Below are positions 1,470 through 20,624 of a DNA stretch of 40,107 bases, one piece after another. Both the position numbers and the translations under genes were made by a program. Origin of the DNA: a virus; the IMG/VR virus record IMGVR_UViG_3300045988_075043, positions 1 to 40,107 of that record. One strand, given 5' to 3'. Below the pieces are notes generated by a model. That model was not told the origin of the DNA. It saw nothing but the letters and a program-made list of their open reading frames with translations, and searched no databases. Position 1 is the first letter of the stretch, and the number at the start of each line of letters is the position of its first letter.

Positions 1470-1524
1470 TAGAAGTCCTCCTTCAAAATATTAGGAGGTG
1501 GCCACCTTCTGTCATTATAATAAC

Positions 1525-1566: not shown

Positions 1567-1590
1567 CGTCAGAAAATCGTCAATTTGTGG

Positions 1591-1827: not shown

Positions 1828-1835
1828 TTATGGCA

Positions 1836-2093: not shown

Positions 2094-2113
2094 TTTGTTT
2101 TCCTCCTTAAAAA

Positions 2114-2419: not shown

Positions 2420-2428
2420 ACTCCTCTC

Positions 2429-3611: not shown

Positions 3612-3934
3612 GCGTTATTCACCCCCAGAGCAACTTCGATTTCAGTCAACGCAGATTCATATTCGGCATTCTGAGCAACAACCGTCTGGTATTGCTCCCG
3701 CTCATACTCCCGCTGGGCGGCGTCTAACTCTGCCCACGGCTTCCACGGGGCAATCATCTCACCGGTGAACACCACGCCATCGGCACGCGTCCACGTCTGG
3801 CCCGCTGGGATGAAGCGATAGCCCTGAATATAAATATTGCACTTATCGTCGAAGGCATCCGTTTCAATCTGCGTCAGCCCCTCAGCGGTGGAGGTGTGGC
3901 ACTTAAAGCTGGAATCTATGTAAATCGTTTTCAT
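3608..3934 (-). CDS. Hypothetical protein (108 aa), fibre/lysis junction
   Basis: SD TAGGAGG plus ATG. Clean composition. No family recognised. Confidence 0.65.
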   Translation of the reverse strand: MKTIYIDSSFKCHTSTAEGLTQIETDAFDDKCNIYIQGYRFIPAGQTWTRADGVVFTGEMIAPWKPWAELDAAQREYEREQYQTVVAQNAEYESALTEIEVALGVNNA

Positions 3935-3945
3935 GAGCCATCCTC

Positions 3946-4824
3946 CTATTTCATCAATTTTATTTCCGTCGCGGTGTACGTAATCGTCAAATACGCGGTA
4001 TGGTTACCGCCAAAACCGATACTGTGGAGCCCGGACAGGGCAGATATGTCAACCGTTACCGTGGTTAGATCGGTACCGATTGCTGTCGAAGCAACTACGG
4101 ACGAACCACTGTACACCTCCAATTTTGTATCGGAGCCGCCCGACGCTTTGCACGTCGCTTGAAGCGTGCTATACTCTGTCAGGTCAATTTGGCCTTTTGT
4201 ACGTGCAGAAATGAGTCTGTTGTTGTTGAAGTTATTTACCGACTTAACCGTCAATTCTGCTTCTGCAGTTACAGCGCTGTTCGCAGGCATTTCCCACTCA
4301 CCGGCTATAATGTCGCTCGGGGCATTTGGTTTGAACAGGAACAACGCATAGCTCAGCTCCACAGAGGTGCTCTGACCATCCGTGGTGATAGTTACGGCCT
4401 TGCTGTCGGTCTCCGTCCCGCTTGTGGAGGTCACCGTCCACGTCCCGGCGTTCGGCACAATGCAAGCCCATGTACCGCTAGTATCAGGGGCGGATAGAGT
4501 CGTTGTGCCGTCAGAGCAAGTGCATGTCGAACCAGCGGGATAGGTGATGTTGATGGTGGCCGCGAAAAACGCAATCACGGTTGAATAATCGGTTGTGACC
4601 ACAACATTCTTTTGGGCGGTCTTGCCGTCACTGGTGATGGTAACAGTCCACGTCCCGGTTGCAAGTCCCTTGAAGACCACCACGCCGCTCGTGCCGGAGT
4701 TTTTGGTCTTCGTCTTGCCGTCCTTGGAAACAGTCACAGTGACGTTCGCCGGGGCTGTGACGGTAAGGGTGCCGCCTGCACCGCCGCTGGCACCAAATCC
4801 ATATAAAGGCACTGCAATGCTCAT
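3946..4824 (-). CDS. Putative receptor-binding/tail fibre protein, beta-rich with duplicated Ig-like units (292 aa)
   Basis: Thr/Gly/Val-rich with repeated GTWTVT(I/S)TS motifs. It follows the fibre gene and is translationally coupled to it. Confidence 0.55.
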   Translation of the reverse strand: MSIAVPLYGFGASGGAGGTLTVTAPANVTVTVSKDGKTKTKNSGTSGVVVFKGLATGTWTVTITSDGKTAQKNVVVTTDYSTVIAFFAATINITYPAGSTCTCSDGTTTLSAPDTSGTWACIVPNAGTWTVTSTSGTETDSKAVTITTDGQSTSVELSYALFLFKPNAPSDIIAGEWEMPANSAVTAEAELTVKSVNNFNNNRLISARTKGQIDLTEYSTLQATCKASGGSDTKLEVYSGSSVVASTAIGTDLTTVTVDISALSGLHSIGFGGNHTAYLTITYTATEIKLMK

Positions 4825-5417
4825 ACGTACACCTCCACCGTGATCGGAATGTTCACCGTGGGCTTGTCCTCAAGGCAGGTAAACGTCAGCACGCCGCCTG
4901 ACCGGGAAGCGAAGCTCACCATCCCGCACGCCTCTTTCAGCGCGACATTGGTAGACGTGTCGCTTCCATACGCCGGATAGGCCATAGCTTTCTTTGCGTC
5001 CGTCAGGCCTGTGATGGTCACAGACTGGACATACGGAGCACTGCCAGCCCACCCGGCAACGGTCAGTGTTGCGGAGACGGAAACCGTCTTTACGCCGTTC
5101 AGAGCCGTGTCCACGTAGCCCTTGTTCGCCGCATCGGCATTGCCCGACGGCACACCCAGCCCCGTGACCTTGTTCCCGCTCATGGCGATATTCCCGGTCA
5201 TGGTGCCGCCCGTTCTGTCCAGAAGGCCGTCGGTACTGACGACATAGTCGTTGATGGCAGGAACGACCTTTTCGTTTATGAACTTCTTGATGGCGATTCC
5301 CGCCTCGTCGAACTTTGCCTTGAATCCCGCCTCGGTGAGGCCGTCATCCACATTGGGGCGCCTGCCCAGCTTCTGAATGACCTCCATATCGGCGGTCAGT
5401 TCCGGTATCTTTGCCAT
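4821..5417 (-). CDS. Tail fibre protein (198 aa)
   Basis: GGTMTGNIAMSGNKVTGLGVPSGNADAANKGYVD is a classic fibre N-terminal motif. Confidence 0.7.
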   Translation of the reverse strand: MAKIPELTADMEVIQKLGRRPNVDDGLTEAGFKAKFDEAGIAIKKFINEKVVPAINDYVVSTDGLLDRTGGTMTGNIAMSGNKVTGLGVPSGNADAANKGYVDTALNGVKTVSVSATLTVAGWAGSAPYVQSVTITGLTDAKKAMAYPAYGSDTSTNVALKEACGMVSFASRSGGVLTFTCLEDKPTVNIPITVEVYV

Positions 5418-7121
5418 TTATGCTCCCTCCCTGTTCAGCGCCCTTTGCAGCGCTCCGTTTCCGCCGCCGCCATTGACGGGCATATCCTCCGATGTGGTCT
5501 GGACGCTCATTCCCGTTCCCGGATTCCCGGAGGGAGCGCCGGCCATGGCCGCCGCTTCAAAATCGTCCAGAAGCTCCTGCTTCTTGGTGATATAGCCGTT
5601 GGGGAGCCGTTCAATGTACTGCTTCGGCGTGATCAGATGGTTCATGAGAAGATTGTCCAGCGTCTGCATGGAGGCCATTTCCGACCAGTAGGAACAGGCG
5701 CCAACGTCCTGCTTGATGGCCATTTGCAGCTCCTTCAGAACGCTGAAATCGAACGGCCGCATAAAGGTCTGCTTGGGCAGCTGCATTCCCAGGGGCTGCT
5801 CACCGGGCTTGTCCATGTCCAGGGAAGTCTCCACCATACGGGTGCCGTACTTCGCCGCCATCATGTCAAGCCAGATTCTTCCCGCTTCCTCCATGCACTG
5901 GTAGTCGTTCTGCTTGGTCAGCTCCATGGGGGTGTTGGCCGCCCGCTGCAAGGCGATAATCGCACTTGTGGTCTCAATCCGGGAGTCGCCCATGGCCACG
6001 TCAGACGCGCCCAGCAGAGAGTGGGTCTTGTCAAAGCTCAGCTCGATAAACTGGGCAATCTGGGGGCTGACGGACGCGCCGTCGATGATCTTTGCCACAT
6101 TGGTCACGTCTCCGGAAATGCCGATGGCCGTTCCCACGCTGCCGTCCCAGCGCTTGATCTTGTTTCGGTCATAGACCACCTTTGGGAACGCCGTGGTCAG
6201 AAGGGAGATGCCCACAAGGGCGAACATCTTGTTGATAAACTTCTGGTTGGGCAGCATTCCGGTGACCAGCGCCTGACCGTGGTAGCAGTCCCGGATATAG
6301 TCCCAGTTAATCCAGATCAGCGGATACAGGCTGTAGCCGGTGTCATAGGCCTTCCGAAGAATGCCCTTCTCCGTGCTTTCCACGCACCAGATGGTGCGGG
6401 TGTCCCGGTTCCGGAAATAGTAGGTCAGCACCGTCACCTTGTCGTCGGTGTAGCTGTCGTATTTGTTCTGGAACTTATCGGAATCCGCCGTAATGCTGTC
6501 CGGGTCGTCGATGCCGCACTGCCCGGCCTTTTTCAGCTCCTCCGCCCGCCATTGGACGTCCTCCACCAGCTCCCGGCGCACAAGGACGATCCAGGGCTGA
6601 CGCTGGACATCCCGGCAATTGGGGTTGCCGAACAGAACCCGGAGGTTGTCCACAATCTCCGCCACGATCTCTCCCTTGACATCCTGGCCGTTTTCAATGG
6701 TGGGGTCAAAGTAGAAGTGCATACAGCCGTCGCCGGTAACGGCGGCGTTGCGCAGAAACTCCCGGTTTTTGGCCACGATCCGGTTGCGCTCGATAATGGC
6801 GGCAAACTGGTGGTTGATGATCTCGGCGAAGCCTTCCAGCTCTCTCTGGGTATACCGGGAGGTGGAGGGCATGGGCGTCACCTGAATGGTCATGTTGTCC
6901 GAGGTAATGGTGGACACCTGAAAGTTGATGATCCGCTTGAACATGTTGTAGGTGGGGGTAGGCAGGCCGTTGCTCTCCACGCCCTCCCATTGATTTCCTA
7001 TGAAGAAATCCTCGTTGACCTTCACCGTGTCATACAGACCGATCTGCTGGTTGAAGCCGTAGGCCTTTTCGTAGCGCTTCTGGATTTCCTCATTGGTGGG
7101 AATCTTCTGTTTTCCGCTCAT
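5418..7121 (-). CDS. Portal protein (567 aa), P22-portal-like N-terminal pattern
   Basis: Supported by size, by position beside the capsid genes, and by NEDFFIGNQWEG...FKRIINFQVSTITSDNMTIQVTP, which resembles the P22 gp1 N-terminal region. Confidence 0.65.
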   Translation of the reverse strand: MSGKQKIPTNEEIQKRYEKAYGFNQQIGLYDTVKVNEDFFIGNQWEGVESNGLPTPTYNMFKRIINFQVSTITSDNMTIQVTPMPSTSRYTQRELEGFAEIINHQFAAIIERNRIVAKNREFLRNAAVTGDGCMHFYFDPTIENGQDVKGEIVAEIVDNLRVLFGNPNCRDVQRQPWIVLVRRELVEDVQWRAEELKKAGQCGIDDPDSITADSDKFQNKYDSYTDDKVTVLTYYFRNRDTRTIWCVESTEKGILRKAYDTGYSLYPLIWINWDYIRDCYHGQALVTGMLPNQKFINKMFALVGISLLTTAFPKVVYDRNKIKRWDGSVGTAIGISGDVTNVAKIIDGASVSPQIAQFIELSFDKTHSLLGASDVAMGDSRIETTSAIIALQRAANTPMELTKQNDYQCMEEAGRIWLDMMAAKYGTRMVETSLDMDKPGEQPLGMQLPKQTFMRPFDFSVLKELQMAIKQDVGACSYWSEMASMQTLDNLLMNHLITPKQYIERLPNGYITKKQELLDDFEAAAMAGAPSGNPGTGMSVQTTSEDMPVNGGGGNGALQRALNREGA

Positions 7122-7417
7122 TATTCGGCTTCACCGCCCATCCGCTCGGCCTGACGGCTTTTCTTCGCCGCCTCCAGGGGGTCAAAGCCCAGAATCCCGG
7201 AAATGCCCAGGTTAAAATCATTCACGGACTTGACCGCCTCCTTTGCCGCCTCATAGTCCGGGACAAGCCCCTGCTCCAGAACGCCGACCCGGTCGCTCAG
7301 CTTTCGGAGGCTTTCGGCTTCCTCCCGGCAGTGCGCCCGTCTGCGCCGGTCGGAGACAACGACCGCGCCCAGAACGAGGCAGGCCACGAGAATATTCAGA
7401 ATCATGAGAATTTGCAT
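7121..7417 (-). CDS. Small membrane-anchored protein (98 aa)
   Basis: SD AAGGAGG. N-terminal TM ILMILNILVACLVLGAVVV. Confidence 0.6.
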   Translation of the reverse strand: MQILMILNILVACLVLGAVVVSDRRRRAHCREEAESLRKLSDRVGVLEQGLVPDYEAAKEAVKSVNDFNLGISGILGFDPLEAAKKSRQAERMGGEAE

Positions 7418-7463
7418 TGTGTCCTCCTTACTGGGGAAGGGGCGGTTGCCCGCCCCTCATAAA

Positions 7464-8540
7464 TCAGGCCTGATCCTTTGCCGCGACGGCGGAGTTGAAC
7501 ATGCCAGCCTTTGCCGCATAAGCCCGCAGGCGGTCGCCGCTGGTCAGGGTGACGGCGGCGGTGTAAGCCTTGGCCTCCACGGAATACCGGGGGTCAGAGC
7601 CGTCGGTGGTGTAGTAGACGGTGGCGCCGCTGGTGGTGGTCTCAATGGTGGCAGCCTTGCCGCTCATGGTGATGGTGGGAGTTTTCACCACGGTGCTGGG
7701 TGCGCAGGCCACAAGGACGCCGTCGGCCTTCTTGCCCAGGACAAAGGCGTCGTACATCATACGGAACTCGATCAGATCGCCGGACAGGCCGGGAGGATCA
7801 ACGTGGCCCTTGAAGTCCTTGATCTTCATGGGGGAGATGACGGACTTCTTGTGCAGGATCATGAACACCACGTTGGCGGGCATCCGGTCGTTGGACATGG
7901 GCAGAACGTTCATGCCGGAAATCTGACCCACGGTGCCCTTGGGCAGGGTCTTGCCGCCCAGAGAATCCAGGTTGACCCACTGCTTCGCCAGCTGGAGGGT
8001 GTCCAGATACTCGTAGGGAATCAGCAGACTCACGTCGCCCTTGACGCCCTTGTCCCGCTGCTTGTTTCGCGCCTTGATGATGTAGCCGATGATGGTGTCG
8101 GTGGTGGGGGCTGCCGTCAGCTCCTCGTGCATACCGGCGTTTTCCGCCCACTTTTTCAGGCGGTAGGTGTCTACCTCGGGGATGATATGCTCCTCCCGTT
8201 CCGCCTTCATGATGGCGCCGACCTTGTGCTTGTCCATGACCTCCATGTTGTTGCCCTTATCCACGGACAGGCTCAGGGACTTGTCCTGAGTCATGGTGAA
8301 GGTCTGCTCCTCGTTGCCCACTTCCTTGGTGTCGCCGTACCGGCTGCCGGTACCCACGCCCTTGGTGCGGTCGTAATCCTGAAGGGGCTCGGTTCTCAGG
8401 CTCTTGACATGGACGGTCTTCACGCCGGAAAACTCCATGTCCAGACTGTGGTCAAAGAGGCCGTCGGTCTCGGATGCCTTGTCGAAGCCCTCCATCAGGG
8501 CGACCTTGTACTTTTCGTCAAAATGAATGGTTGCGCTCAT
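7464..8540 (-). CDS. Major capsid protein with C-terminal Ig/CHB_HEX_C-like decoration domain (358 aa)
   Basis: Strong SD. It lies directly downstream of the scaffold gene. The C-terminus SGATVYYTTDGSDPRYS...AYAAKAGMFNSAV matches the chitobiase C-terminal/Fn3-like motif. Confidence 0.75.
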   Translation of the reverse strand: MSATIHFDEKYKVALMEGFDKASETDGLFDHSLDMEFSGVKTVHVKSLRTEPLQDYDRTKGVGTGSRYGDTKEVGNEEQTFTMTQDKSLSLSVDKGNNMEVMDKHKVGAIMKAEREEHIIPEVDTYRLKKWAENAGMHEELTAAPTTDTIIGYIIKARNKQRDKGVKGDVSLLIPYEYLDTLQLAKQWVNLDSLGGKTLPKGTVGQISGMNVLPMSNDRMPANVVFMILHKKSVISPMKIKDFKGHVDPPGLSGDLIEFRMMYDAFVLGKKADGVLVACAPSTVVKTPTITMSGKAATIETTTSGATVYYTTDGSDPRYSVEAKAYTAAVTLTSGDRLRAYAAKAGMFNSAVAAKDQA

Positions 8541-8558
8541 AAATTTCCTCCTTAAATC

Positions 8559-8601
8559 AAAAAATGAGCCGCGGCTGTCCCGTTGGGATTAGCTTCGGCT
8601 C
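8559..8601 (-). terminator. Possible attenuator/partial terminator between the scaffold and capsid genes
   Basis: GAGCCG/CGGCTC stem with an internal CCC/GGG helix, followed on the - strand by TTTTTT. Confidence 0.35.
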
Positions 8602-8625
8602 TTGGCTCCTGTTTGTTTATTCTGT

Positions 8626-9513
8626 TTATGCGAATGCCGACATAAAGTCGTCAAAATCGCTCTTCCCTCTCTGCCCGCCGGAATCCTTCTGGCTTCCGGG
8701 AGAGCTTGAGCGGTTTTCCCGGTTCTTCTTCTCGGCTGCCAGCTGACGTTCCAGCTCGGCGATTCTGGCTTCCTTCTGCGCGGCCTCGTACTTCTGGTAG
8801 GCGCTCAGGAGGGTCATACCGGCCTGTACATCGGGGGCTAGCTTGCTCACAAGCTCGTCCGTGAACTCCACCTCCGGATAGCTCCGGCGGAACTCATCCA
8901 CCTCCCGCTGCGCCCGACTCTGGCTGCTTTCCTCCGCCTCCTTCTGCTTGTCCTTCTCCGCGTTGACCGCGTCCAGACCCTTTTGCAGCCGGGCGTTCTG
9001 AAGCTCCAGCTTCGCCTCCGTCTCCGTGCGTCCCTCGCCCTTCCGGTAGCTGACATACAGCATTTCCGCCAGCTCGTTCAGGGGAGTGCCGGTTTTCTCC
9101 GCCAGGGTGGTCATGATCTCCATCACGTCCTTCTGGCCGTCCAGCTGGGTTTTCAGCTCCTGAATGGTCTGCTGGGCACGCTCCTTGACGCGGTCGTAAT
9201 CCGCACCCTTCTGGGCGAGGGCGGTCATTTCGGCAAGGCCGACGGTTCGCTCCTCCTTGTTGACCTTGATGGTGAAGGTCTGCTCGGCATCCGGCTTGTC
9301 CGATTCCTCCGGGGCGTCGACTTCCCCGCCGGTATCTTCTCCGGTTCCCTCGTCAGGTTTTTCCGCTCCCTCATCGGCCACGGTGGTTTCCTGTTCCGTG
9401 TCAGCCCGCTCCTCGGTCTGTGCGCCGGTTTCCTGGTCGGTCACGGTCTGGTTGCCGTCCCCGTCAAAAGCCGCCACAAAGTCCTGGTAGCCGCTGTCCA
9501 TCGTTTCTTCCAT
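8626..9513 (-). CDS. Scaffolding protein (295 aa)
   Basis: Very acidic N-terminus and a long coiled coil. It lies between terL and the capsid gene. Confidence 0.7.
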   Translation of the reverse strand: MEETMDSGYQDFVAAFDGDGNQTVTDQETGAQTEERADTEQETTVADEGAEKPDEGTGEDTGGEVDAPEESDKPDAEQTFTIKVNKEERTVGLAEMTALAQKGADYDRVKERAQQTIQELKTQLDGQKDVMEIMTTLAEKTGTPLNELAEMLYVSYRKGEGRTETEAKLELQNARLQKGLDAVNAEKDKQKEAEESSQSRAQREVDEFRRSYPEVEFTDELVSKLAPDVQAGMTLLSAYQKYEAAQKEARIAELERQLAAEKKNRENRSSSPGSQKDSGGQRGKSDFDDFMSAFA

Positions 9514-11214: not shown

Positions 11215-11306
11215 TGGCGGAACAGGCAGGACTCGAACCTGCACACCGGAATCCATCGGTGAACGGATTAGCAATCCGCCGCAGTACCTGTTATGCTTAC
11301 TGTCCC
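11215..11306 (-). tRNA. tRNA-Ser (anticodon GCU), class II with long variable arm, CCA encoded
   Basis: Hand-folded. Acceptor GGGACAG/CTGTTCC, anticodon loop TTGCTAA, variable-arm stem CACCG/CGGTG, T-arm GCAGG-TTCGAGT-CCTGC. Confidence 0.85.
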
Positions 11307-11311
11307 GTATT

Positions 11312-11387
11312 TGGTGCTGGTGGCTGGGGTCGAACCAGCTCCCTGCGCCTTATCACGACGCCGCTCCGCCTGTTGAGCTACACCAGC
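11312..11387 (-). tRNA. tRNA-Ile (anticodon GAU), CCA encoded
   Basis: Hand-folded. Acceptor GCTGGTG/CACCAGC, D stem GCTC/GAGC, anticodon loop GTGATAA, T-arm GCTGG-TTCGACC-CCAGC. Confidence 0.85.
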
Positions 11388-11466
11388 ATTTTTTAATTTT
11401 TTATGACCGCCTTTTCAAAACCACCCCGCCCGTTTCCCCTCTACCCCCTCCCGGGGCAGTCTCAAA

Positions 11467-11625
11467 ATTCGTTGCTGCGTATAGTATATATATATATTAT
11501 ATATAAGCTATAATGTTAATATTAAAGCTATAGGTTATATATAAGCTATATAAGCTATAAAGTATATACCAGTCTTTATCTTAGATATAGGCTTTAAGTA
11601 TATTATTAATCTTACTATTGCCGCA
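11467..11625. repeat. AT-rich non-coding island with four AAGCTATA repeats and a (TA)n tract
   Basis: AAGCTATA at 11505, 11525, 11543 and 11552. TATATATATATATTATATATA lies at about 11485-11505. Confidence 0.8.
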
Positions 11626-11959
11626 TTGATGTTTGAATTTTGCCGGGAAGAAGAAAACAGCCGGAAACTAGGAAATTGGAAGAGAGGGTGTGTCGCATAT
11701 ATCTATACCTTATCGAATGACCCCACCCCCTTCCCCGCTATCCCCCCGGGGGTGGGTGGCTCAAAAGAAAGCCCTTCGGTGCTGGCCTATATTTCAACCA
11801 GCCAGGGGAGTTATTGCCAGCCAGGGCAGCACCACCAGCACCACAATAGCCCATAGCATTTATACCCCAATTGTCCACAGCTCGAATACACCAATTGCAA
11901 TTATCCTTGAAATGTTCGGACTTCCCAGATTACACCCGCAATCTCCGAACATTTCAGAG

Positions 11960-11997
11960 AAAACGAACGCAACAAAAATACTATTTTGTGGCGTTCG
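11960..11997 (-). terminator. Intrinsic terminator-like hairpin immediately after terS
   Basis: On the - strand, a CGAACGC(CA)...(TG)GCGTTCG stem is followed by TTTTCTC. Confidence 0.45.
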
Positions 11998-12478: not shown

Positions 12479-12507
12479 ATAATATTCAATAAATGGCCGT
12501 TTGTCAA
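12479..12507 (-). promoter_or_regulatory. SigA-type promoter for terS and the packaging genes
   Basis: On the - strand: TTGACA (12502-12507), 17 nt, TATTAT (12479-12484). Confidence 0.65.
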
Positions 12508-12750
12508 CCCGTTTTATTATCGAATCACGATAATAAGTGCATGATAAACGAAAAGAAAACGCCGCATTGCAATAATGCGACGCAGGGGTGAACAGCGGTG
12601 TAAAATGCGTGATACTTGTGGCCGTGGAGTTCTTAACCTCGGGAAAAGAAAAAAGCTGGAATAATCCAGATATAATAATTAAATTAAAGCGGGAAAAAGG
12701 GTAGGCTTTGGGGTGGCGAAAAAATAATTTGGAAAAAGTAAAATTGGGGG

Positions 12751-12779
12751 TTGACATATGGGATATCCCATGATATAAT
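12751..12779 (+). promoter_or_regulatory. Consensus promoter with a palindromic operator in the spacer
   Basis: TTGACA (12751-12756), 17 nt, TATAAT (12774-12779). The spacer contains the perfect 14-bp palindrome ATGGGATATCCCAT (12758-12771). Confidence 0.8.
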
Positions 12780-12810
12780 GAAGCTACCCTAAAGGAAAGG
12801 AGGGCAACAC

Positions 12811-12957
12811 ATGGGACAGACAGACAGCCAATTCAAAGCGTTCATCCGTTTCGTGCTTGATGCTCTGCGCGAGATTGCAGCAGAAAAGGACGAAGAAAAG
12901 AGAGCCGCCAAGATGGAAAAGGTGCTGGACAACCTCCAGAAGACCTTAGAGGACTAA
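12811..12957 (+). CDS. Small helical protein (48 aa)
   Basis: SD AAAGGAGGG plus ATG. MGQTDSQFKAFIRFVLDALREIAAEKDEEKRAAKMEKVLDNLQKTLED. Confidence 0.6.
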   Translation: MGQTDSQFKAFIRFVLDALREIAAEKDEEKRAAKMEKVLDNLQKTLED

Positions 12958-13008
12958 GAGAGGGCGGGGGCGAGCAATCGCCCCACCTTCAGAAAAAGGA
13001 GGGCAGAC

Positions 13009-13176
13009 ATGGCAGACAGCCAAGCAAAAGCGTCGTGGGAAAAAGAAAATGTGCTGAAGGTGCTTGTAAAGGTTAATAAAAACCAGAATCCGCAATTATT
13101 CGACTTGTTGCAAAAAGCTGATAGCAAATCAGGTTTAGCCCGCGAACTTATGAACAAGGCAATCAAAGACAAATAA
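13009..13176 (+). CDS. Small ribbon-helix-helix-like protein (55 aa)
   Basis: SD AAAGGAGGG plus ATG. A beta-strand-like NVLKVLVKV is followed by two helices (PQLFDLLQKA, GLARELMNKAI). Confidence 0.55.
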   Translation: MADSQAKASWEKENVLKVLVKVNKNQNPQLFDLLQKADSKSGLARELMNKAIKDK

Positions 13177-13295
13177 AAAATCCGTGCAGATGCGGCAACA
13201 CCTGCACGGGAAGCCCACAAGACCCAGTACCATCCAAGTCAAGGAGCAATGTTATTATAACCTCCTTGACCAGCAAAATCAAGGAGGAATTTTTT

Positions 13296-14258
13296 ATGAA
13301 ATACTTCACTACCTGCACAACTCTTGACGAACTGAAAAAGGAATTTCGCCGTCTCGCCATGCTGCACCACCCCGACCACGGCGGCGACACCGAGACCATG
13401 AAAGCCATCAATGCCGAGTATGACGCGGTTTTCCCGGCCTTCAAGCTGGCCTATAACCGCACCGCCAAGACCCCCACCGCCGAGACCGCCCAGAGCACCC
13501 GCAGCGAGTTCTACACCGCCAACGGCTGGAAGGGCAGCAACTACGAATCCGGCCGCAGCCTGAAGGAGATCGCCCAGCTTGTCCGTCAGTTCATCAAGGA
13601 GCAATTCCCCACCTATAAATTCAGCGTCCGCACCTCCTACGCCTCCATGTGCCAGGAGCTCCACGTGGACATGAAGGAAGCCCCCTGCAAGATCTACAAG
13701 GACTTCGAGGAGCTGACCGAGGAAGACAAAAACGACCTTATCCGCCGCATGACCCGCAACAGCGTTTTCACCCTCAGCAGCTGGAACAGCGCCGAATTAA
13801 AGGCCGAGTTTGAACGCATCTGGGCAGAACGCGGGGACTATTACAAATGCCCATCCGACCAGCTGAAAGCCGCCGCCGAAGCCGTGGACGGCTACGTGGA
13901 ATCCTTCAACTTTGACGACTGCGACGGCATGATTGATTATTTTCACGTGAATTTCTATTACTTCGGCTGTCTGCAAGACAACGCCCGCAACGTGAAGTTC
14001 GTTCCCAAGACCGCCCGGGTCGCCGCGCCGAAGGAACCGAAGCAGGAAGAAAAGAAAGCCGGGTTCCTCCGGGTGGAGATCAACCCCGAGTTTGACGGCG
14101 TGGAGGTTTATTTCCCCGATAAGCCCAGCGACGAAACCCGCACCGCCCTGAAAGCCGCCGGTTACCGCTGGCACAGCAAGAAAAAATGCTGGTACGCCCG
14201 GAACACGGAGCAGCACCTGCAAGCCCTCCGGGCAATCGAAACCGGCCTGACAGCATAA
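13296..14258 (+). CDS. J-domain protein with unrecognised middle and C-terminal domains (320 aa)
   Basis: SD AAGGAGG plus ATG at 13296. LDELKKEFRRLAMLHHPDHGGDTETMKAINAEYD carries the HPD motif. Confidence 0.8.
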   Translation: MKYFTTCTTLDELKKEFRRLAMLHHPDHGGDTETMKAINAEYDAVFPAFKLAYNRTAKTPTAETAQSTRSEFYTANGWKGSNYESGRSLKEIAQLVRQFIKEQFPTYKFSVRTSYASMCQELHVDMKEAPCKIYKDFEELTEEDKNDLIRRMTRNSVFTLSSWNSAELKAEFERIWAERGDYYKCPSDQLKAAAEAVDGYVESFNFDDCDGMIDYFHVNFYYFGCLQDNARNVKFVPKTARVAAPKEPKQEEKKAGFLRVEINPEFDGVEVYFPDKPSDETRTALKAAGYRWHSKKKCWYARNTEQHLQALRAIETGLTA

Positions 14259-14263
14259 GAAAC

Positions 14264-14287
14264 AGCCGCCCCAAACCCGGGGCGGCT
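14264..14287. terminator. Bidirectional terminator between convergent genes
   Basis: AGCCGCCCC / GGGGCGGCT 9-bp stem followed by TTTC. It sits between the stops at 14258 (+) and 14298 (-). Confidence 0.7.
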
Positions 14288-14297: not shown

Positions 14298-17200
14298 TCA
14301 CACAAGTTTCCCTTTATACAGCTTGTAGAACATCTGCGCTTCCTCGCTGGAATACCCCAGCGCCACCCATGCGGCGATCATGTCCGCCTTCTTGGTGAAC
14401 TCCTGAGTGACTCCATAGGTCTGCGTAAACTGCTCCGCGGAATACCCCCTGCCCCGGAGATAGGCATACTTGAGTTCCGTCTTGTTGGGCTTCTCTGCCT
14501 CGGGGTCATAGTCCGGCATATACAGCAGCATGACCCTGTCTTTTTCCTTGTCGCTCAGGCCGTCCAGCGCCGCGATATAGCCCCATTTGTCCCGGTTGGT
14601 AACGGTGGCCTCCCCTGTGTCCTTGTCCACGCTGCCGGTGCCCTGAAGGTCAGCAAGCCCCTTAATGATCCGGTCTGCCACGTCGGAGGAAAGCCCGGAT
14701 TCCGTCATGGCGTCGAACTTCTCCGTTTCAATGGGGAATGTCTGCCGGAAAACCATCTTGTCCTTGAGGGCGTCGTGGGCGGCCTTGGTGATCTGGCCGG
14801 ATTCATAGGCATTTCCCAGTGTCCGCGCCCATTCCTGCGCCTTGTCCTTTCCGGCCATCCCGGAATTGCCGTCCAGATTCTTGTAAACCCCGTACAGGCT
14901 TGCAAACGTCTCACCGCTTACGCCGTTCTCCCTGGCGGTTATGTAGTACCCGATTCTGCCGCCGGTGCCGTTCTTAAATTCCTGCTTCTGGGCTTTCCCC
15001 AGGGATTCATAAATGCTGTAGGCCTGCCCCAGCGCCTCCGGCTCCATGGTGTCGAACGCCTTGGAAAATTCCGATCTCACCAAATCCTGCATAATGCTGT
15101 TTTCCACGGTTTTAGCGTCCTTCGGGCTGTCCGTCGTGTAATCGGAAACCGCCGCCCGGGCGTGTTCCGTGGCGTAGGTCTTCGCCCGGTTCAGGGCATT
15201 CGCTTTCTGCTCGTCCGAAAGATTCCGGAATGCTTCACTGCCCATCAGCCCGGTGTAATAGCTGCTCACCAGCTCGCCATAGGTCTTTTGGTAGGTTTCC
15301 CTTGCCTCGCCGTCCAGATTGACCGTCTCACCGTTTACATGGATAGACATGGGTGCCTGTCTGTCCGGGATAAAGCTGGTGTCACCGTCAAGGCTCCCGC
15401 TCAGTTCTTCCAGATAGTTTGTCACGTCGTTCTTGCGGTAAGTCTGGGTTTTCGTCGGGTCGACAAACGTATTGAAGAACCCGCCCCGCTCCTGCGCCTC
15501 TCCCAGTCCGCTGTATTTCTTCGGAAGGGTCTGGGACAGGAACGGAAGTCCGGCGATGATGTTGTTTATGGCATACTCCGCCGAGGTCTCCCCCCGGGTG
15601 TCCCTGTAGTATCCGTCGGTAAGCTGTGCCGTCTGCCTGACAAACTGCGGAATAAAGCTGCCGGCGGTATCTCCGGCATACCCGGCCAGTTCGTCCATTA
15701 TGCCGGAAGCATCGTCCGCTTCAACAACACCGCTTATTAAATCAACCCCACCGGACAAGCCGGTCATCATGGGGCTGTCCATCAGAGAATTGAACACAGA
15801 TTTCACGGTTGCAAACGGATACGCTTTCAGCATGTCGGCAACGCTGTCCTCTTTGGAAAGCTCATACCCGAGATATAGCTGGGTATTGAACGGCTCCAGG
15901 AAGTCCAGGCTTGTGATAATGTCCCCGTCCTGCCATTCCGAACTCCCGCCGTCCAGTCCTCTTTTGAGGGCGCTCCAATTGATTTGTGCGCCGCTTCTCC
16001 CTTCGGCCTGTAAAAGTGCCTTTTCGTCCTTGTCCTTCGGCTCATTGACCTTTACAACGCCGGTTGCAGCCGCCGCTGTAAACATGGCAATCATTCCGAC
16101 GCCGCTTAAGCCCCGGCCAAAGTCGGAAGCTACCTGCCTCTGCCGGGCAACGTCGATTTCCTTTCCGGCTTTCGCATCCTTTATGAGGGAAATAGCTTCC
16201 CCGACGCTCTTAACAACGCCCGCCGAATAGTCAATGCCCGTCTGGGTCACGTTCATAGGCACCGACGCGAACGGAATCACGGCATCTACTGCGGCTTCTC
16301 CCGGTTTCCCGAAAATATCCCCTGCGCCTCTTTTGAACCCCGCCGCCGCTCTGGAAAGATCAGAGCCACGAGTTTTGCCGTCGCTGTCTTTCCATGTTGC
16401 ATCCTTGAATGTCCGCCGGTTCGCGGTGAATTCGCTCAGCTGCGCGATCTGTTCCTCTGTAAGGTTCGCATTTTTCAGGTTGTTCAGGCTTTCGGAAATC
16501 GCCGCATTCGTTCCGCCCTCAAAGATTTTGTCCGTTACCTCAAGGTTGTAGCTCATATACTTCTGGAATGCGTACATGGCGCGCATAGCAACGTTGCCGG
16601 TGGAGCGGAAAGTCCTGCCCATGTATTTCCCGCTGCCGCCGTCGCCCATAGCTGTGGAAAGGGAGGCGCCCGCGCCCGTTTCAATCGGGATGTTCAGCTC
16701 CACACACAGCGACGCGAAGCTTGCCGCGTCCGCTGCGCCTTTTGCATAGGCCTTCACATTCTTGAAGTCGTTTCCCACAGTCTTCCGGCCTGTGAACTTA
16801 GACAGAACCGCATCCATCATCCTTCCGCCGGTGCTGTCGCTTGCGGAATCCATCAGCCCACCGAAGGAGTTGCCCGTGATATTTCTTGCAAACGTTTTAA
16901 GGCTTGCAAGCATATTCTGTTTCCGGATTCCCATGGCAATTTCCGTCTTCGTCCGCGCCCGGAAATCATCCGACATTGCCGCGATCTGGGCGTTTGCAAC
17001 CGTCTTAAGGTCGTCAAAATCCATTTTCCCAAGAATCCGTTCTGCTGTTCCTGTCAGATTCTGAGATGTGCCGAACCACGCCGTTGTATTCCTTTCCCTG
17101 GCGATCTGGCGGATAATGTCCCGCATTCCTGCGCTGTCTCCGTCATCCACCAATTCAACCGCAATTGCAATCCGGTCAATATTTTTTGCTATGTCCTTCT

Positions 17201-20200
17201 GCCACTGCTTGTAGGTTTCTCCGCCTTCCTTCTGCCGGAATGTGGAATCCTCCCGCTTCATGTCAAGAATGGCGTTCCGTGCCCGTTGCGCGGCGGTCAT
17301 TGAATCCTGCAAATCTGCCATTGTCCCGGAAATGGCGAATGCCTGCGTGACCTGTCCGGCGTTCGTCCCGATTTCCCGGATTTTCATATTCATTTCCGTG
17401 ATCTGGTTCTGTGCGCCGTCAATTTCAGAGTGTACCAGATTCTTGGTCACATATTTGGCGGTCAAAAGGTCTTCCGCCGTCCATGCGTCCTTACCCATAA
17501 GGTAGTCATATTCCGCCTGAACCTTTTCCGGGGTACTGGTTCTTTCCTTTGCCGTGGCCGTGGTGTCCGCGTTGTGCTTGACGTCGTAAATTCCGGCATC
17601 CGGGTTTCCCTTGACCATCTGCTTATAGCCCTGCCGGATGTCCGCGTCCTTGCTGTGAAGTCCGGTGTTGCTTACCGTCCGCGATACTTCCAAATCCCCG
17701 GACGGCTCATTCTGCATTCCCACCGTGTCCACAGACTGTCCGCCCCCCGTGGACTTCCCGGAACTGTCCTCCACCTGTGGACTGCTCTTTCCCATCAGGG
17801 AATCCCGGTAGGCCAAGGCGGCGTCATAGTCGTTCTTGCCGTAGGTGGGCAGTGCCGCCAGCTGGTCATCCGTGATCTTCGGGTAAGTACCCATCTTTTG
17901 GGCGACGGTGTCCGCGCTGTCCCCGTTGTGCTTCATCACGTAGATGTACGGCTCGCCCTTGTCCGGCGTCCACCCCTCGTTGGCGTAGGTCTTGTTGAAC
18001 TCCACCCTTGCCACCGGTTCAAAGCCATATTTGGCGTAGAGTTTCGCAAGCCCTTCCCCGTAGCAGTCCAGCCGGTCGCCGCCCTGCTCAATGGCAATGG
18101 GCATCATGGTGTCAAGGGCTTTCGGGGGCCCTCCGTTCTTGTTCTTGAAAACCGCCACAATGTCCCCGTCCGGAGCAATACCCACGCCCACCGTTCCGTT
18201 GTCGTTCATGAAGGTTCGGACGTTGCCGTCTTTCAGCTGCTGGGCGGATTTCGGCGTAACGCACCAGCCGTTTGCCGGGTCGGAGTTTCGCCCTGCGGTC
18301 AACGCCTGCTCATAGCTTACCGGGTCGGCGGTGGTGTCCCTTACGGCATAAGTCGGTGTTCCCCGCTGCCTCTGGGCTTCCTGTAATTTGTCGCTTACGC
18401 GAAGCTCTCCAGAAACTCGTAGGTCATTTTGAGAAGCGCCGCCTCCGGATTCTCCTTGTACGCCTCCCGGAACCACTTGGGTTCCCGCTTCCATTCCTCC
18501 GGGTGCTTGTCCAGATACTGGCAATGCTCCCGTGTCTGCTCCAGAAACCCGTTCGGTTCCAGTTCCTCCGGGTAGTCCCGTTCCATCAGTGCCTTGTAAT
18601 CCCGTTCCATTTTCCGTACCTCCCTGTATCGGATTCCCGTTAATAGCATTATAATTCCCGTCAGTGCCGGTGTCAACGCCCAGAACCCGGTCAAAGGCAT
18701 TTTGCACCGCCTGCCGTTCCGGCGTGACCTCCGGCGTTTCCTGCCTTGCAGGCGCTCTTTCCGCCAGCTCCTGCCCCATGTCCTCGATCAGGCTCTGCGC
18801 CCCCTCCCGGTTCAGGGTTGTGGTGGCGGTGTCCCCGGCCAGCTGCCGGACGGCTGCCTTTACCGCGTTCCGCTTCTCCGACGCCGTGGCCATTTGGGAC
18901 AGGTCAAGCCCCGTCTGCCGGGAAAGCTGCTCCATGGCTGCCGGGTCTGAAAGAATCTTCTCCACGGTCTTGTTGCTCACGTTCCCCGTTTCCGCCAGCT
19001 TGTCCAGTGCGTTTGTGAGCGCATTCCCCACCTGTGGTGTCCCTGCCGCCTCCGCATCAGGGCTTTGTGCTTTCGTGGTGTCAGTGGACGTTTCCGGTGA
19101 AATCCCCGCCTGTGGGTTCCCTGCGGTCTCCTGCGCGTTCTGAGAGGCATTCGTCTTTGCCTCTGCCCTTGCAACGGCATTGCTGTACACGATAGCAGTA
19201 AGGCCGGACAGACCGCCGGACAGACCGGAGACAAAGGCGGTTTCCTTTGCCTCGTCCACGATGGCCTTGGCCGCCGCCGCTTTCGCATCGGCGTAGGAAT
19301 AGCCGTCAACCACAAGCTGCTGAATGGCCCGGTTGTACTCGCTCTTTTCCTGTAGAATGGCCGCTTCGGCAAGGGTGCTGCCAACCAGGCTCGCTTCTTC
19401 CTCGCTGATCTCCACACCGGCCTGACCGATGGTGTTCAGCAGGAACTTGGTCAAATCCTTGGTAGCCCCCGCCTTGGCCTTGTCCAGCAGCTTGTCCATG
19501 GATACCTTTTCCGTCAGGACTTCCAGTATGGCGTTGACCGTGCCCATGCCGTAGGCCTGGGCAGGGGTAGCGCCCTTCTGGGTGGCTTCCCGGACACCGG
19601 ACGCAAAGGAATCCATAGCAACCGCGCCAAGGGAGGCGGTGGGACCCAGGACAGCCAGCCGGGTCAGGGAATCCGCCGTGGACATAGCCGCCTGATAGCC
19701 GTAGCCCAAAGCGTTTCTTACGACGTTGTCCCCTTCGCCCACGATATTCTTTCCGGTTTCCTCCCGGACTGCGTCGTAGTAGATGGAAGCAAGGTCATTC
19801 GACCGCACCGGTTCAAGCGTGGGATACCGCTTGGGACTAATGAGTTCGCCCACTCTGCCCATGAATGCGTTCGGCGTATTCAACAGCTTGCCGCCAACGG
19901 ATTCTATGCTCTTTCCAATGGCTCCGGGTACGGTAGACACATCCTCGGCGGCTTTCGCCATTTTCTCCTCCGCCTGCCGCTCATGAAGATCCCATGAGTA
20001 GGCGGCAACCATGGCGTCGAAGGCATCCCTGCCGTACTTGTCCACCAGAGGTTGACTCGCCTTGTCCATTCGGGTTGCCGCAAGTAAGGAAGAACCGCCG
20101 CTTCCGAAATGTGCCCAGAAATTTTCGGATATATCTTTGTTCTCGACATAATCCGCCAGCAATTTCCGGTCTTCCTCCGGGAGAGCGTTCACCTTCGCCA

Positions 20201-20624
20201 TATCCTGCTGGCGCATACGGGCGGTAATGGCTTTTTCCTGTTCGTTTTTCCAATAATCCGCCTTAGCTTTCAGCCCCTTGGATGTTTCGTCCTCGAATAC
20301 CTCCGTCATCTGCGGCGCATTCCGGGGAACCTCCGACATGGGAGTATTCCGCGTCAGCTTTGTCGCCGCCTCCTGCTTGCGCTGCTGGAACTCCTGAGAA
20401 TTCACATAGTCGTCATACTCTTTCTGGGCAAGAGCCGCGTTTTTCCTGTAACCTATGGCCTCATTGTCAAGCGCGACCAGAGCGTCCCGGTATTCCCGCT
20501 GCGATTTCTCCCTCTCCACCGGATTGTATGTGCCGCTGAGCTTTTTCACGGACTGCACCCGTTGATATTCCCTATTCGCTTTCTCCCTGATCTTCCCCCA
20601 TGATTCGTCCTTCGTAACCGCCAT
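14298..20624 (-). CDS. Giant virion/ejection (polyvalent-type) protein, 2108 aa, with a GNAT-fold-like segment
   Basis: SD AGGAGG plus ATG at 20624. Uninterrupted ORF. Residues of about 785-900 (nt about 17925-18270) read ...DRLDCYGEGLAKLYAKYGFEPVARVEFNKTYANEGW. One TM-like stretch, GVGMIAMFTAAAATGVV. Confidence 0.75.
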   Translation of the reverse strand: MAVTKDESWGKIREKANREYQRVQSVKKLSGTYNPVEREKSQREYRDALVALDNEAIGYRKNAALAQKEYDDYVNSQEFQQRKQEAATKLTRNTPMSEVPRNAPQMTEVFEDETSKGLKAKADYWKNEQEKAITARMRQQDMAKVNALPEEDRKLLADYVENKDISENFWAHFGSGGSSLLAATRMDKASQPLVDKYGRDAFDAMVAAYSWDLHERQAEEKMAKAAEDVSTVPGAIGKSIESVGGKLLNTPNAFMGRVGELISPKRYPTLEPVRSNDLASIYYDAVREETGKNIVGEGDNVVRNALGYGYQAAMSTADSLTRLAVLGPTASLGAVAMDSFASGVREATQKGATPAQAYGMGTVNAILEVLTEKVSMDKLLDKAKAGATKDLTKFLLNTIGQAGVEISEEEASLVGSTLAEAAILQEKSEYNRAIQQLVVDGYSYADAKAAAAKAIVDEAKETAFVSGLSGGLSGLTAIVYSNAVARAEAKTNASQNAQETAGNPQAGISPETSTDTTKAQSPDAEAAGTPQVGNALTNALDKLAETGNVSNKTVEKILSDPAAMEQLSRQTGLDLSQMATASEKRNAVKAAVRQLAGDTATTTLNREGAQSLIEDMGQELAERAPARQETPEVTPERQAVQNAFDRVLGVDTGTDGNYNAINGNPIQGGTENGTGLQGTDGTGLPGGTGTERVSGADTGALPVSGQAPGGMEAGTQVVPGGVQGESGGGASQNDLRVSGELRVSDKLQEAQRQRGTPTYAVRDTTADPVSYEQALTAGRNSDPANGWCVTPKSAQQLKDGNVRTFMNDNGTVGVGIAPDGDIVAVFKNKNGGPPKALDTMMPIAIEQGGDRLDCYGEGLAKLYAKYGFEPVARVEFNKTYANEGWTPDKGEPYIYVMKHNGDSADTVAQKMGTYPKITDDQLAALPTYGKNDYDAALAYRDSLMGKSSPQVEDSSGKSTGGGQSVDTVGMQNEPSGDLEVSRTVSNTGLHSKDADIRQGYKQMVKGNPDAGIYDVKHNADTTATAKERTSTPEKVQAEYDYLMGKDAWTAEDLLTAKYVTKNLVHSEIDGAQNQITEMNMKIREIGTNAGQVTQAFAISGTMADLQDSMTAAQRARNAILDMKREDSTFRQKEGGETYKQWQKDIAKNIDRIAIAVELVDDGDSAGMRDIIRQIARERNTTAWFGTSQNLTGTAERILGKMDFDDLKTVANAQIAAMSDDFRARTKTEIAMGIRKQNMLASLKTFARNITGNSFGGLMDSASDSTGGRMMDAVLSKFTGRKTVGNDFKNVKAYAKGAADAASFASLCVELNIPIETGAGASLSTAMGDGGSGKYMGRTFRSTGNVAMRAMYAFQKYMSYNLEVTDKIFEGGTNAAISESLNNLKNANLTEEQIAQLSEFTANRRTFKDATWKDSDGKTRGSDLSRAAAGFKRGAGDIFGKPGEAAVDAVIPFASVPMNVTQTGIDYSAGVVKSVGEAISLIKDAKAGKEIDVARQRQVASDFGRGLSGVGMIAMFTAAAATGVVKVNEPKDKDEKALLQAEGRSGAQINWSALKRGLDGGSSEWQDGDIITSLDFLEPFNTQLYLGYELSKEDSVADMLKAYPFATVKSVFNSLMDSPMMTGLSGGVDLISGVVEADDASGIMDELAGYAGDTAGSFIPQFVRQTAQLTDGYYRDTRGETSAEYAINNIIAGLPFLSQTLPKKYSGLGEAQERGGFFNTFVDPTKTQTYRKNDVTNYLEELSGSLDGDTSFIPDRQAPMSIHVNGETVNLDGEARETYQKTYGELVSSYYTGLMGSEAFRNLSDEQKANALNRAKTYATEHARAAVSDYTTDSPKDAKTVENSIMQDLVRSEFSKAFDTMEPEALGQAYSIYESLGKAQKQEFKNGTGGRIGYYITARENGVSGETFASLYGVYKNLDGNSGMAGKDKAQEWARTLGNAYESGQITKAAHDALKDKMVFRQTFPIETEKFDAMTESGLSSDVADRIIKGLADLQGTGSVDKDTGEATVTNRDKWGYIAALDGLSDKEKDRVMLLYMPDYDPEAEKPNKTELKYAYLRGRGYSAEQFTQTYGVTQEFTKKADMIAAWVALGYSSEEAQMFYKLYKGKLV
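18395..18610 (-). CDS. Nested +1-frame gene inside the giant ORF (71 aa, acidic/aromatic helical)
   Basis: GGAGG (18619-18623), 8 nt, then ATG at 18610; TAA at 18395-18397. Hand-counted GC3 is about 77% in this frame against about 31% in the overlapping long-ORF frame. Confidence 0.6.
   Translation of the reverse strand: MERDYKALMERDYPEELEPNGFLEQTREHCQYLDKHPEEWKREPKWFREAYKENPEAALLKMTYEFLESFA

Follow-up and report, generated by a model that had tools for sequence, protein, structure and literature searches.

In this study, we analysed a three-gene plus-strand cassette in a 40,107-nucleotide (nt) stretch of viral DNA (IMG/VR record IMGVR_UViG_3300045988_075043, positions 1 to 40,107), which is called the window here. 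The cassette encodes two small proteins from open reading frames (ORFs) 1 and 2 and a 320-amino-acid (aa) protein, J-LPD29, in which a J-domain-like hairpin is joined to an LPD29 domain and a small C-terminal domain. On balance, we read the cassette as a "burst then shut-off" accessory operon of a temperate Oscillospiraceae phage with a P22-type portal, built like the immI region of phage P22 or like anti-CRISPR (acr) operons with anti-CRISPR-associated (aca) genes, whose effector would recruit the host chaperone DnaK. The evidence consists of the promoter with its operator, the genes, the joint change of regulator and operator among related loci (given below by L-numbers), the geometry of an antisense promoter and terminator, and the domain content of the large protein, all read from the sequence and from comparison. 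The proposal of an earlier note on this DNA that the cassette is an independent, operator-controlled unit is supported by these results.

Promoter, operator and regulator

The cassette begins at the promoter P(O) (Table 1). As the earlier note had described, P(O) is perfect: it scored 12/12 and has the TG of an extended -10 (12771-12772), but it is one of four such promoters in the window. The palindrome ATGGGATATCCCAT, described in the same place, was an exact match and occurs as a sole copy in the window, and its right arm provides the TG of the extended -10. Further ORF2 loci came from viral contigs by pattern search (17) and from species genomes by operator search (8). Sixteen close homologues of ORF2 were found in a large protein database, none of them with a Pfam match. 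The results showed that promoter architecture of the P(O) type stands ahead of every ORF2-family gene examined, and that TTGACA-[A/T]ATGGG-N4-CCCATG-TAT... precedes the ORF2 homologue in each locus that has one. The core ATGGG-N4-CCCAT was kept in at least 15 distinct loci, always with an ORF2 homologue, and the suggestion that the palindrome is operator-like is strengthened by this conservation. Constant arms enclose four variable central bases (ATAT, ACGC, ATGC, AACT, CTAG, TCGA, TGCA, GCGA, ATAC, GCAT and AGCA), and the operator of L070 carries a symmetric double change, ATAGG..CCTAT.

We then compared the genes next to the operator. Homologues of ORF1 (54-56% identity) adjoin ribbon-helix-helix (RHH)-like genes in L036-L039, and ORF1 itself, which the earlier note took to be helical, gave a weak PHROG match only. 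In other loci, the position of ORF1 is taken by a different 47-aa ORF, by a 25-30-aa hydrophobic peptide or by nothing. Because this position varies, ORF2 is the only protein that is always found with the operator. In sister phages with the same backbone and with J proteins that are 96-99% identical, regulator and palindrome were exchanged as a pair. L011 carries a different small protein, the type C regulator, with the palindrome ATACTAAGCTAGTAT, and L024 and L030 carry a type B regulator with CATACT-N6-AGTATG, of which a second copy lies just ahead of the ribosome-binding site (RBS) of the J gene. At other J genes, the RHH-like gene is divergent and the promoter spacer holds ACCGTTAACGGT. 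From this pairing, ORF2 is probably an autorepressor that binds the palindrome.

The earlier assignment of ORF2 to the RHH proteins was borne out weakly. ORF2 had no Pfam match, and hhalign aligned it with the RHH-like regulators of sister loci at P = 1e-4 (probability 57%). These sister-locus regulators are interlinked by jackhmmer and have weak matches to RHH families (NikA-like, ParD, RHH_1 and HicB). In a PDB profile search, the top match of ORF2 was a 70-aa chain, 2q2k (E = 0.5, weak), which we take to be the RHH protein ParR of pSK41, and the NCBIfam ParR model matched ORF2 weakly (E = 0.017); a narrower ORF2 profile gave chance matches only against the PDB. The AlphaFold2 (AF2) monomer was all-helical with a predicted local distance difference test score (pLDDT) of 59, and this model cannot decide the question because an obligate dimer is expected to model poorly. 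An RHH fold for ORF2 is probable only.

Two further observations concern these small genes. In many relatives, the regulator genes of types A (the ORF2 type), B and C have no ATG, GTG or TTG at a workable distance from a Shine-Dalgarno (SD) sequence (L007 9731-9940; L024 and L030 ~5737-5940; L066, L069, L070, L074 and L077 at 2501), and a conserved GGGGGCGAAGTCA-ATA in these genes suggests initiation at AUA. The ORF2 of the window starts with ATG. The 25-30-aa hydrophobic peptide found at the ORF1 position in relatives, for example MTTLEIIGLLNLLAVVIFGVINAQKK, is followed by a conserved leader of ~150 nt and lies between promoter and regulator (L007 9555-9635; L024, L030, L066, L069, L070, L074, L078 and L079). 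A role as leader peptide or as membrane-active peptide is conceivable.

The spacer between ORF2 and the J gene

The 119-nt spacer (13177-13295) is a conserved portable element, which follows ORF2 homologues and precedes genes of different kinds. Two stem-loops had been noted here, at 13182-13209 and 13238-13270, and both exist. Because a minus-strand unit is conserved at this site, we read them not as mere spacers but as the terminator and the promoter region of a predicted antisense small RNA (sRNA), the second hairpin carrying the antisense -10 in its loop. The predicted antisense promoter, P(as), scored 10/12 in the promoter scan, and its -35 abuts the SD of the J gene on the opposite strand. 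The predicted sRNA would start at a G near 13247, six bases past the -10, directly followed by CUCCUUGAC, which is an anti-SD sequence for the J gene. The 12-bp hairpin at 13209-13182, followed by AUUUUUUAUU, is a minus-strand terminator by scan, and the predicted sRNA, 76 nt as folded, has a folding energy of -33.9 kcal/mol (z = -4.2).

Comparison with related elements extended these results. In 15 of 15 elements, TTGAYT-17-TA[T/A/G]AAT-6 nt-G was kept and followed by an anti-SD-like CU-rich stretch, while the sequence of the promoter spacer drifted. The minus-strand fold was the more stable one in 18 of 19 elements, by a mean of 6.9 kcal/mol. A covariance model built from 14 other elements, with the window left out, gave one strong match in the window, at 13229-13298 (-) (77.6 bits, E = 9e-20). 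The same comparison bears on another explanation, that the minus-strand promoter and terminator are unused and the spacer is a cis-acting mRNA switch (SD, anti-SD and anti-anti-SD) or a protein-binding leader. The plus-strand leader does fold (z = -3.9) with the SD sequestered, and three boxes in it co-vary to some degree, as such a switch would have it. However, in the terminator stems of the 15 elements, 42 of the 208 pairs are G.U on the minus strand and A.C mismatches on the plus strand, so that they stabilise the first hairpin on the minus strand only; the U-run after this hairpin is also present on the minus strand only, and all 15 elements keep the -35 and -10 hexamers, the 17-nt distance between them and the +1 G unchanged. 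We consider a purely cis-acting switch quite improbable, and we prefer the antisense unit.

The leader of the J gene carries three boxes that would form a switch together with the predicted sRNA (Table 1). The hairpin of box 1 with the anti-box and that of the anti-box with the SD box are isoenergetic (-13.4 kcal/mol each), and fold modelling with box 1 blocked, as it would be by the sRNA, led to the SD-sequestering fold. The boxes change together in L066, L067 and L070. In addition, CUCCUUGA at the 5' end of the predicted sRNA is complementary to the SD, UCAAGGAG.

Several other candidates were tried and rejected. No Rfam family matched the antisense element; the Rfam families 6A and skipping-rope gave no match in 12700-13400 even at E <= 10, nor in 12 related loci. 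A promoter scan found no separate plus-strand promoter for the J gene in 12780-13296, and the extended -10-like string TGTTATTAT was dismissed as a J-gene promoter, the first T not being kept in L058.

A sister element was seen in ~20 other viral contigs (L088-L094, L103-L106, L114, L117, L121, L128, L130, L135, L138 and L140). It has two hairpins with GUUACCAGC loops, the boxes AGAGCTGAT, ATCAGCTCT and GGAGCTGAT, and a minus-strand TGATATAAT extended -10, and the genes downstream of it resemble integrases or recombinases at their N-termini (judged by look, without a profile search). The four loci scanned contained no Rfam family at this element.

Domain content of the J-LPD29 protein

The His-Pro-Asp (HPD) motif of the 320-aa protein, at residues 25-27, and the C-terminal unit quoted in the earlier note are both present. 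The approximately 250 residues that the note had left unassigned are made up of LPD29 and a DUF5710-like small domain. By homology, the LPD29 domain extends from ~70 to 235; residues 1-57 form a J-domain-like helical hairpin, residues 240-256 a disordered linker and residues 259-320 the small DUF5710-like domain (Pfam scores in Table 1). A search returned 893 homologues at E <= 0.001. All 120 homologues listed carry PF18847, many also pass the DnaJ cut-off, and one is named "LPD29 domain-containing protein" by NCBI.

The J-domain signature that had been reported in this protein is supported by conservation, with H25, P26 and D27 invariant in 37/37 aligned homologues. Helix II of the 320-aa protein reads ELKKEFRRLAM, and the HPD is also kept in all of the short J proteins described below. 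The top phmmer matches in the PDB were all J domains (E = 0.009-0.4). The AF2 model (pLDDT 81) contains a high-pLDDT hairpin (helix 10-23, HPD, helix 32-56), an alpha/beta core to approximately residue 230 and a small domain at 259-319 with the order beta-beta-alpha-beta-beta-alpha. Foldseek searches with the model gave weak repeated matches to ribosomal protein uS3 and to J domains in the PDB (E = 2 for a J domain), and phage proteins annotated LPD29, DUF3560 or DnaJ in BFVD. The J hairpin superposed on the DnaJ-annotated BFVD phage proteins at 0.9-1.4 Å. We also considered a virion protein and rejected it, as the 320-aa gene had no structural-protein matches in PHROGs or Pfam.

The N-terminal part is a portable module, MKYF..L.ELKK.YR.LA..HPD.GGD.E.MKAINAEY. 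In many phages of Clostridia, Bacteroidales, Desulfovibrio and Eggerthellales, ~160-aa proteins have this module joined directly to the small domain, and the converse layout, an N-terminal small domain followed by LPD29 and without a J domain, occurs in 250-aa proteins. The small domain matched 1795 representative clusters and a primase-annotated PHROG. Among 63 small-domain proteins sampled, the partners were LPD29 (11), DUF5710 (6, counted at E <= 0.001), LPD25 (2), ArdA (1), LPD30 (1) and DnaJ (1). From its sequence matches, the C-terminal domain is best called DUF5710-like. Because of its J, LPD29 and small-domain content and the partners of these domains, the 320-aa protein is, judged by sequence, a type III-like J protein from the domain pool of the "polyvalent proteins". 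The rarity of J domains among phage accessory genes had been overstated, since gut phage contigs hold this J module in abundance and a phage J protein, Rki, is already characterised (PMC3486835).

Cargo genes behind the element

We next looked at the genes that occupy the same slot in related phages. Behind the same element we found short J proteins (L066, L075, L080, L143 and L153), an ArdC antirestriction protein (L067; ArdcN 96 bits, MPTase-PolyVal 125 bits), small-domain-LPD29 proteins (L069, L077 and L147), a recurrent 56-aa protein and several proteins that have no annotation. A metagenome scan for the element core returned 10 loci only. J-LPD29 homologues without the regulatory module still adjoin packaging genes, in the opposite orientation, and in L007-L009 the gene lies between a replication/late-regulator block and terS.

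These cargo genes bear on the toxin-antitoxin (TA) or defence grammar that the earlier note had seen in the cassette. J-LPD29 would then be the DnaK-dependent toxin of a prophage TA or abortive-infection module, held by the small protein and/or the antisense RNA and released on superinfection. The cassette resembles type I and type II TA systems in its small regulator beside a larger protein, its probably autoregulated promoter and its predicted antisense RNA aimed at the RBS of the downstream gene; a phage J protein can be highly toxic via DnaK (PMC3486835), and another defence moron of the prophage, AbiD, likewise has a consensus promoter of this kind. However, none of ORF1, ORF2 and the 320-aa protein gave a PADLOC match or a match to a toxin family in Pfam. 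The regulators are of minimal DNA-binding size and have no toxin-binding extension; they are swapped between near-identical phages apart from the cargo and can be divergent from the J gene, and regulator and effector are separated by the 119-nt structured spacer in place of translational coupling. The slot also holds ArdC and many unrelated cargos. We consider a TA or abortive-infection module unlikely.

The position of the gene bears on another explanation, in which J-LPD29 is a replication or packaging helper. DnaJ and DnaK remodel the lambda P-DnaB complex and plasmid Rep proteins, and the J domain could likewise bring DnaK to a replication-initiation or terminase complex, with the small domain as DNA or replisome adaptor. 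Fusions of DUF5710 with Rep_3 initiators exist (PMC11233732), and the primase-annotated PHROG match, the gene order in L007-L009 and the constant neighbourhood of packaging genes agree with such a role. Against this, the gene is transcribed opposite both neighbour operons, and its promoter is of the host type and probably has a dedicated repressor; its slot is also used by antirestriction-type cargo; and among the 63 sampled proteins LPD domains and ArdA were the commonest partners of the small domain, with no replication enzymes (0). A helper role is possible, though its probability is low.

Comparison with known systems

In P22, the operator lies between the -35 and the -10, Arc has ~50 aa and Ant ~300 aa. 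The immI region of P22, the "ant moron", consists of mnt, arc, sar and ant, and two repressors and the sar antisense RNA control ant (PMC2629481, PMC13397905). The cassette shares several properties with it. Both are independent variable accessory units whose neighbours are structural and packaging genes, in phages with a P22-type portal; both have a strong promoter under a small ~50-aa repressor, here a probable one, from an early gene of the operon, the operator within the promoter being found here at the sequence level; and in both a short antisense RNA from a convergent spacer promoter, here predicted, covers the RBS of a ~300-aa effector. Unlike immI, the cassette has J, LPD29 and a small domain in its effector in place of Ant, an extra first gene (ORF1) and no Mnt-like second repressor in the window. 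The host is of the Gram-positive Clostridia type, the cassette is antiparallel to its neighbours, and the predicted sRNA seems to act through the three-box switch. We found no protein or RNA similarity to the P22 parts, with no ANT/KilAC or Arc/Mnt matches in Pfam and no Rfam match. Since no component is homologous to those parts, the cassette is an analogue and not a member of P22 immI.

The parallel could extend to function, and J-LPD29 would then be an antirepressor that inactivates the repressors of its own or heterologous prophages by DnaK remodelling and feeds the lysis-lysogeny decision. The architecture follows Pant/Oarc-arc-sar-ant point by point in a phage with a P22-type portal (PMC2629481), and the effector has about the size of Ant. 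However, besides the missing Ant/KilAC similarity and the missing Mnt-like repressor, unrelated cargo such as ArdC stands in the same slot, and elsewhere J proteins lie between replication and packaging genes without the regulatory module. We regard an antirepressor as possible but quite unlikely, and we retain the reading of a counter-defence or takeover effector set out below.

A second parallel is with acr-aca operons. LPD29 genes have been seen in aca4 operons, and Aca14 has been described as an RHH protein (bioRxiv 10.64898/2026.07.27.740549). Like these operons, the cassette has a strong promoter with an inverted repeat for a small co-encoded autorepressor, here with predicted binding, and it carries interchangeable cargo, LPD29 among it, with extra predicted leader controls at the RNA level. 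It differs in that the regulator is upstream of the main cargo and in that control at the RNA level would come from an antisense sRNA acting in trans or in cis and not from a protein-bound motif in the 5' untranslated region. No known Acr or Aca homologue turned up; no search of an Acr/Aca library was made, and the resemblance is architectural.

Two protein-level relatives were also compared. The first phage J-domain protein to be characterised was Rki of phage RB43, an early product that is toxic via DnaK when over-expressed (PMC3486835). Both Rki and J-LPD29 are type III-like phage J proteins with an N-terminal HPD-bearing J domain and an uncharacterised C-terminal part. No similarity between them was seen outside the J motif, they belong to different phage and host groups, and Rki affects sigma-32 stability in Escherichia coli, while nothing comparable is known for J-LPD29. 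LPD domains have been proposed as early-invasion or anti-defence modules, and solo LPD proteins near structural genes were described by Iyer, Burroughs, Anand, de Souza and Aravind in 2017 (PMC5512222). J-LPD29 agrees with these polyvalent proteins in its LPD29 domain above the Pfam cut-off, in a small domain that is elsewhere fused to LPD25, LPD29, LPD30 and ArdA, and in the ArdC of the same regulated slot of L067. Unlike them, it is a 320-aa solo protein and not a giant one, and the LPD30 partner is absent. The J-domain fusion is absent from that description, in which DnaJ or J domain has 0 occurrences (PMC5512222).

Proposed mechanism and significance

From these results we infer DNA binding by ORF2, the existence and action of the sRNA, the recruitment of DnaK and the biological role of the cassette, in the following order. 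Host RNA polymerase would fire the consensus promoter once repressor-free phage DNA enters the cell, and the transcript would carry ORF1, ORF2 and, via read-through, the J-LPD29 gene. ORF2, small and probably an RHH dimer, would then bind the spacer palindrome and close the promoter. The convergent promoter in the ORF2-J spacer would yield the ~75-nt antisense RNA, which would pair with leader box 1 and leave the anti-box free to occlude the SD of the J gene; CUCCUUGA at its 5' end could also pair directly with the SD. Synthesis of the J protein would thereby be confined to a short window or a low level. The HPD-bearing J hairpin of the effector would engage host DnaK, while LPD29 and the small C-terminal domain would pick the target. 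The role of the effector is most likely early counter-defence or host takeover, at a dose that would be harmful if uncontrolled. Because Rki, also made early, kills through DnaK when over-expressed (PMC3486835), two layers of repression would have a reason.

Several points weigh against this reading. Most of the cargo proteins in the slot are unannotated, and we know of no activity for LPD29 or the small domain. The J signature of this sequence lies just under the Pfam cut-off; the AF2 model shows J helices II and III only, with a rudimentary helix I and no helix IV, and Foldseek of the whole model against the PDB returned nothing at E <= 0.001. For ORF2, there was no Pfam or significant PDB match and the AF2 model was poor. 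The box pair counts were modestly above controls, which is supportive and not decisive, and a control slid by +1 scored equally well on the three boxes because five sequences have longer boxes, a matter of alignment register. In the window variant there is a single hairpin; most relatives carry a pair, in which the GUUACCAGC loops are conserved. Three parts of the scheme are predicted, namely the sRNA, the timing and read-through as far as the J gene, and the anti-defence role is assigned by guilt by association.

A broader version of this proposal can be put forward tentatively, and we hold it to be clearly less probable than the operon reading itself. In it, an undescribed and abundant family of gut-phage J effectors, in which a J hairpin is joined to LPD29 and/or the small domain, would hijack DnaK right after DNA entry and take apart one particular complex of the host or of a prophage, for example a defence system, a repressor or a replication complex. 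The family would be governed by a new portable module of repressor, ATGGG-N4-CCCAT operator and an antisense sRNA family with a three-box SD switch, and this module would mark a counter-defence hotspot as aca marks acr.

The family is of interest for several reasons. Rki is the one phage J-domain protein studied so far, and the J-LPD29 family has hundreds of members in phages of human-gut Oscillospiraceae and would tie Hsp70 recruitment to the domain repertoire of the polyvalent proteins. The regulatory module is compact, conserved and portable, and it is a possible search handle for early or anti-defence genes, as aca is for anti-CRISPRs. The predicted antisense RNA is a candidate RNA family absent from Rfam, and the parallel with P22 immI would be convergent, Firmicutes phages having arrived at one control logic with unrelated components. 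A recent study linked host DnaJ to the way in which a defence protein senses phages (PMC12169576), and competition for DnaK by a phage J protein would therefore be of direct interest.

Cassette layout

The coordinates of the features are listed in Table 1. The three plus-strand genes of 48, 55 and 320 aa reported earlier were confirmed by ORF reading. ORF1 differs from its copy in L011 by 17 synonymous and 0 non-synonymous codons, and ORF2 from its homologue in L031 by 15 synonymous and 7 non-synonymous codons; because of these patterns, both are real genes. The hairpin between them is not followed by a T-run and is identical in L011. A TTG start that would give the large gene 330 aa was rejected, as every homologue begins with MKYF or MxYF at an ATG behind GGAGG.

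Table 1. Positions of the cassette features in the window and of Pfam matches in the J-LPD29 protein
Feature	Position	Strand	Description
Cassette promoter P(O)	12751-12779	+	-35 TTGACA 12751-12756, 17-nt spacer, TATAAT 12774-12779
Operator-like perfect palindrome ATGGGATATCCCAT	12758-12771		14 bp, inside the P(O) spacer
ORF1	12811-12957	+	48 aa, acidic, strong SD; variable first gene of the module
Intercistronic hairpin between ORF1 and ORF2	12967-12984	+	7 bp, GCAA loop; direct reading of the sequence
ORF2 (type A)	13009-13176	+	55 aa
Predicted antisense sRNA	13172-13247	-	~75 nt; 5' end G-CUCCUUGAC; 3' end hairpin 13209-13182 and U-run
Three-box leader switch (predicted)	13239-13288	+	Box 1 UCAAGGAGC 13239-13247; anti-box CCUCCUUGA 13262-13270; SD box UCAAGGAGG 13280-13288
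Predicted antisense promoter P(as)	13254-13282	-	-35 TTGATT 13282-13277, 17 nt, -10 TATAAT 13259-13254
J-LPD29 gene	13296-14258	+	320 aa; ATG start 8 nt past GGAGG
GC-rich hairpin	14264-14287		Common to the convergent J gene and 2108-aa gene; terminator scan
DnaJ match (PF00226)	Residues 9-42		26.0 bits, E = 1e-5; just below the cut-off of 27.8
LPD29 match (PF18847)	Residues 89-142		38.7 bits; above the cut-off of 27
DUF5710 match (PF18974)	Residues 284-309		18.7 bits; below the cut-off of 26.5

The setting of the cassette differs in part from its first description. It is the sole plus-strand unit, but the span in which this holds runs from ~448 to 32328 and is wider than the 24 kb given before, and the flanks are not all late genes, as the upstream minus-strand block also has Rad52-like, Lin1244_N and methyltransferase genes. 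At the downstream end, the hairpin of the terminator at 14264-14287 is real, while its bidirectional use is plausible only: the scan passed the minus strand alone, and the plus-strand tail has 4 T in 8. Use on the plus strand would follow from its position. On the upstream side, two minus-strand terminator-like hairpins (12559-12583 and 12656-12669) precede a minus-strand 11/12 promoter at 12479-12507, which stands ahead of a 155-aa gene. Because of these hairpins, the cassette appears insulated on this side.

The phage and its other features

The window encodes an integrase, AbiD/Abi_2, TerL, a major head protein and a P22-type portal, and because of this gene content we assign it to a temperate ~40-kb phage with a P22-type portal. 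The identical 320-aa protein was found on 24 contigs, several of ~40 kb, and related contigs came from metagenome-assembled genomes of Faecousia, Limivicinus and other Oscillospiraceae. A DNA similarity search against deposited phages matched one unannotated gut contig and nothing else.

Besides P(O) at +12751, perfect TTGACA-17-TATAAT promoters occur at +36182, +37153 and -18676. The first of these (36182-36210) precedes the AbiD/Abi_2 gene (36304-37164), the second (37153-37181) stands 50 nt ahead of a match to the Rfam 6A RNA, and the third (18676-18648, minus strand) lies inside a 2108-aa gene, on the strand of that gene. Four perfect promoters in 40 kb are far above chance by a rough estimate, not a computed one. 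Two Rfam families scored above their gathering scores: 6A RNA (68 bits) at 37203-37253 (+), and skipping-rope RNA (57.8 bits) at 38738-38808 (+), directly upstream of the integrase gene (38817-39944).

The 2108-aa ORF lies at 14298-20624 (-), convergent with the cassette. It gave no significant Pfam match (a chance-level E = 0.019 only) and matched one PHROG of unknown function at residues 790-875, a stretch that looks acetyltransferase-like by eye.

In two other samples, the same phage carries an insertion of ~8.4 kb (L002 and L003, ~306-8672) with inovirus-like genes (Rep_OBD, Zot-like and a helix-turn-helix repressor). The insertion sits directly after the stop of the 155-aa gene, and the 29 bp at window positions 11969-11997 are duplicated at both of its ends, att-like. 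Its appearance is that of a filamentous phage that has inserted into a tailed prophage. The stretch 11400-11997, of ~600 nt, has no convincing ORF, and beside it, between the 155-aa gene and TerL, are genes for tRNA-Ser(GCU) and tRNA-Ile(GAU) at 11215-11387 (-); in related phages, too, this position has tRNAs.

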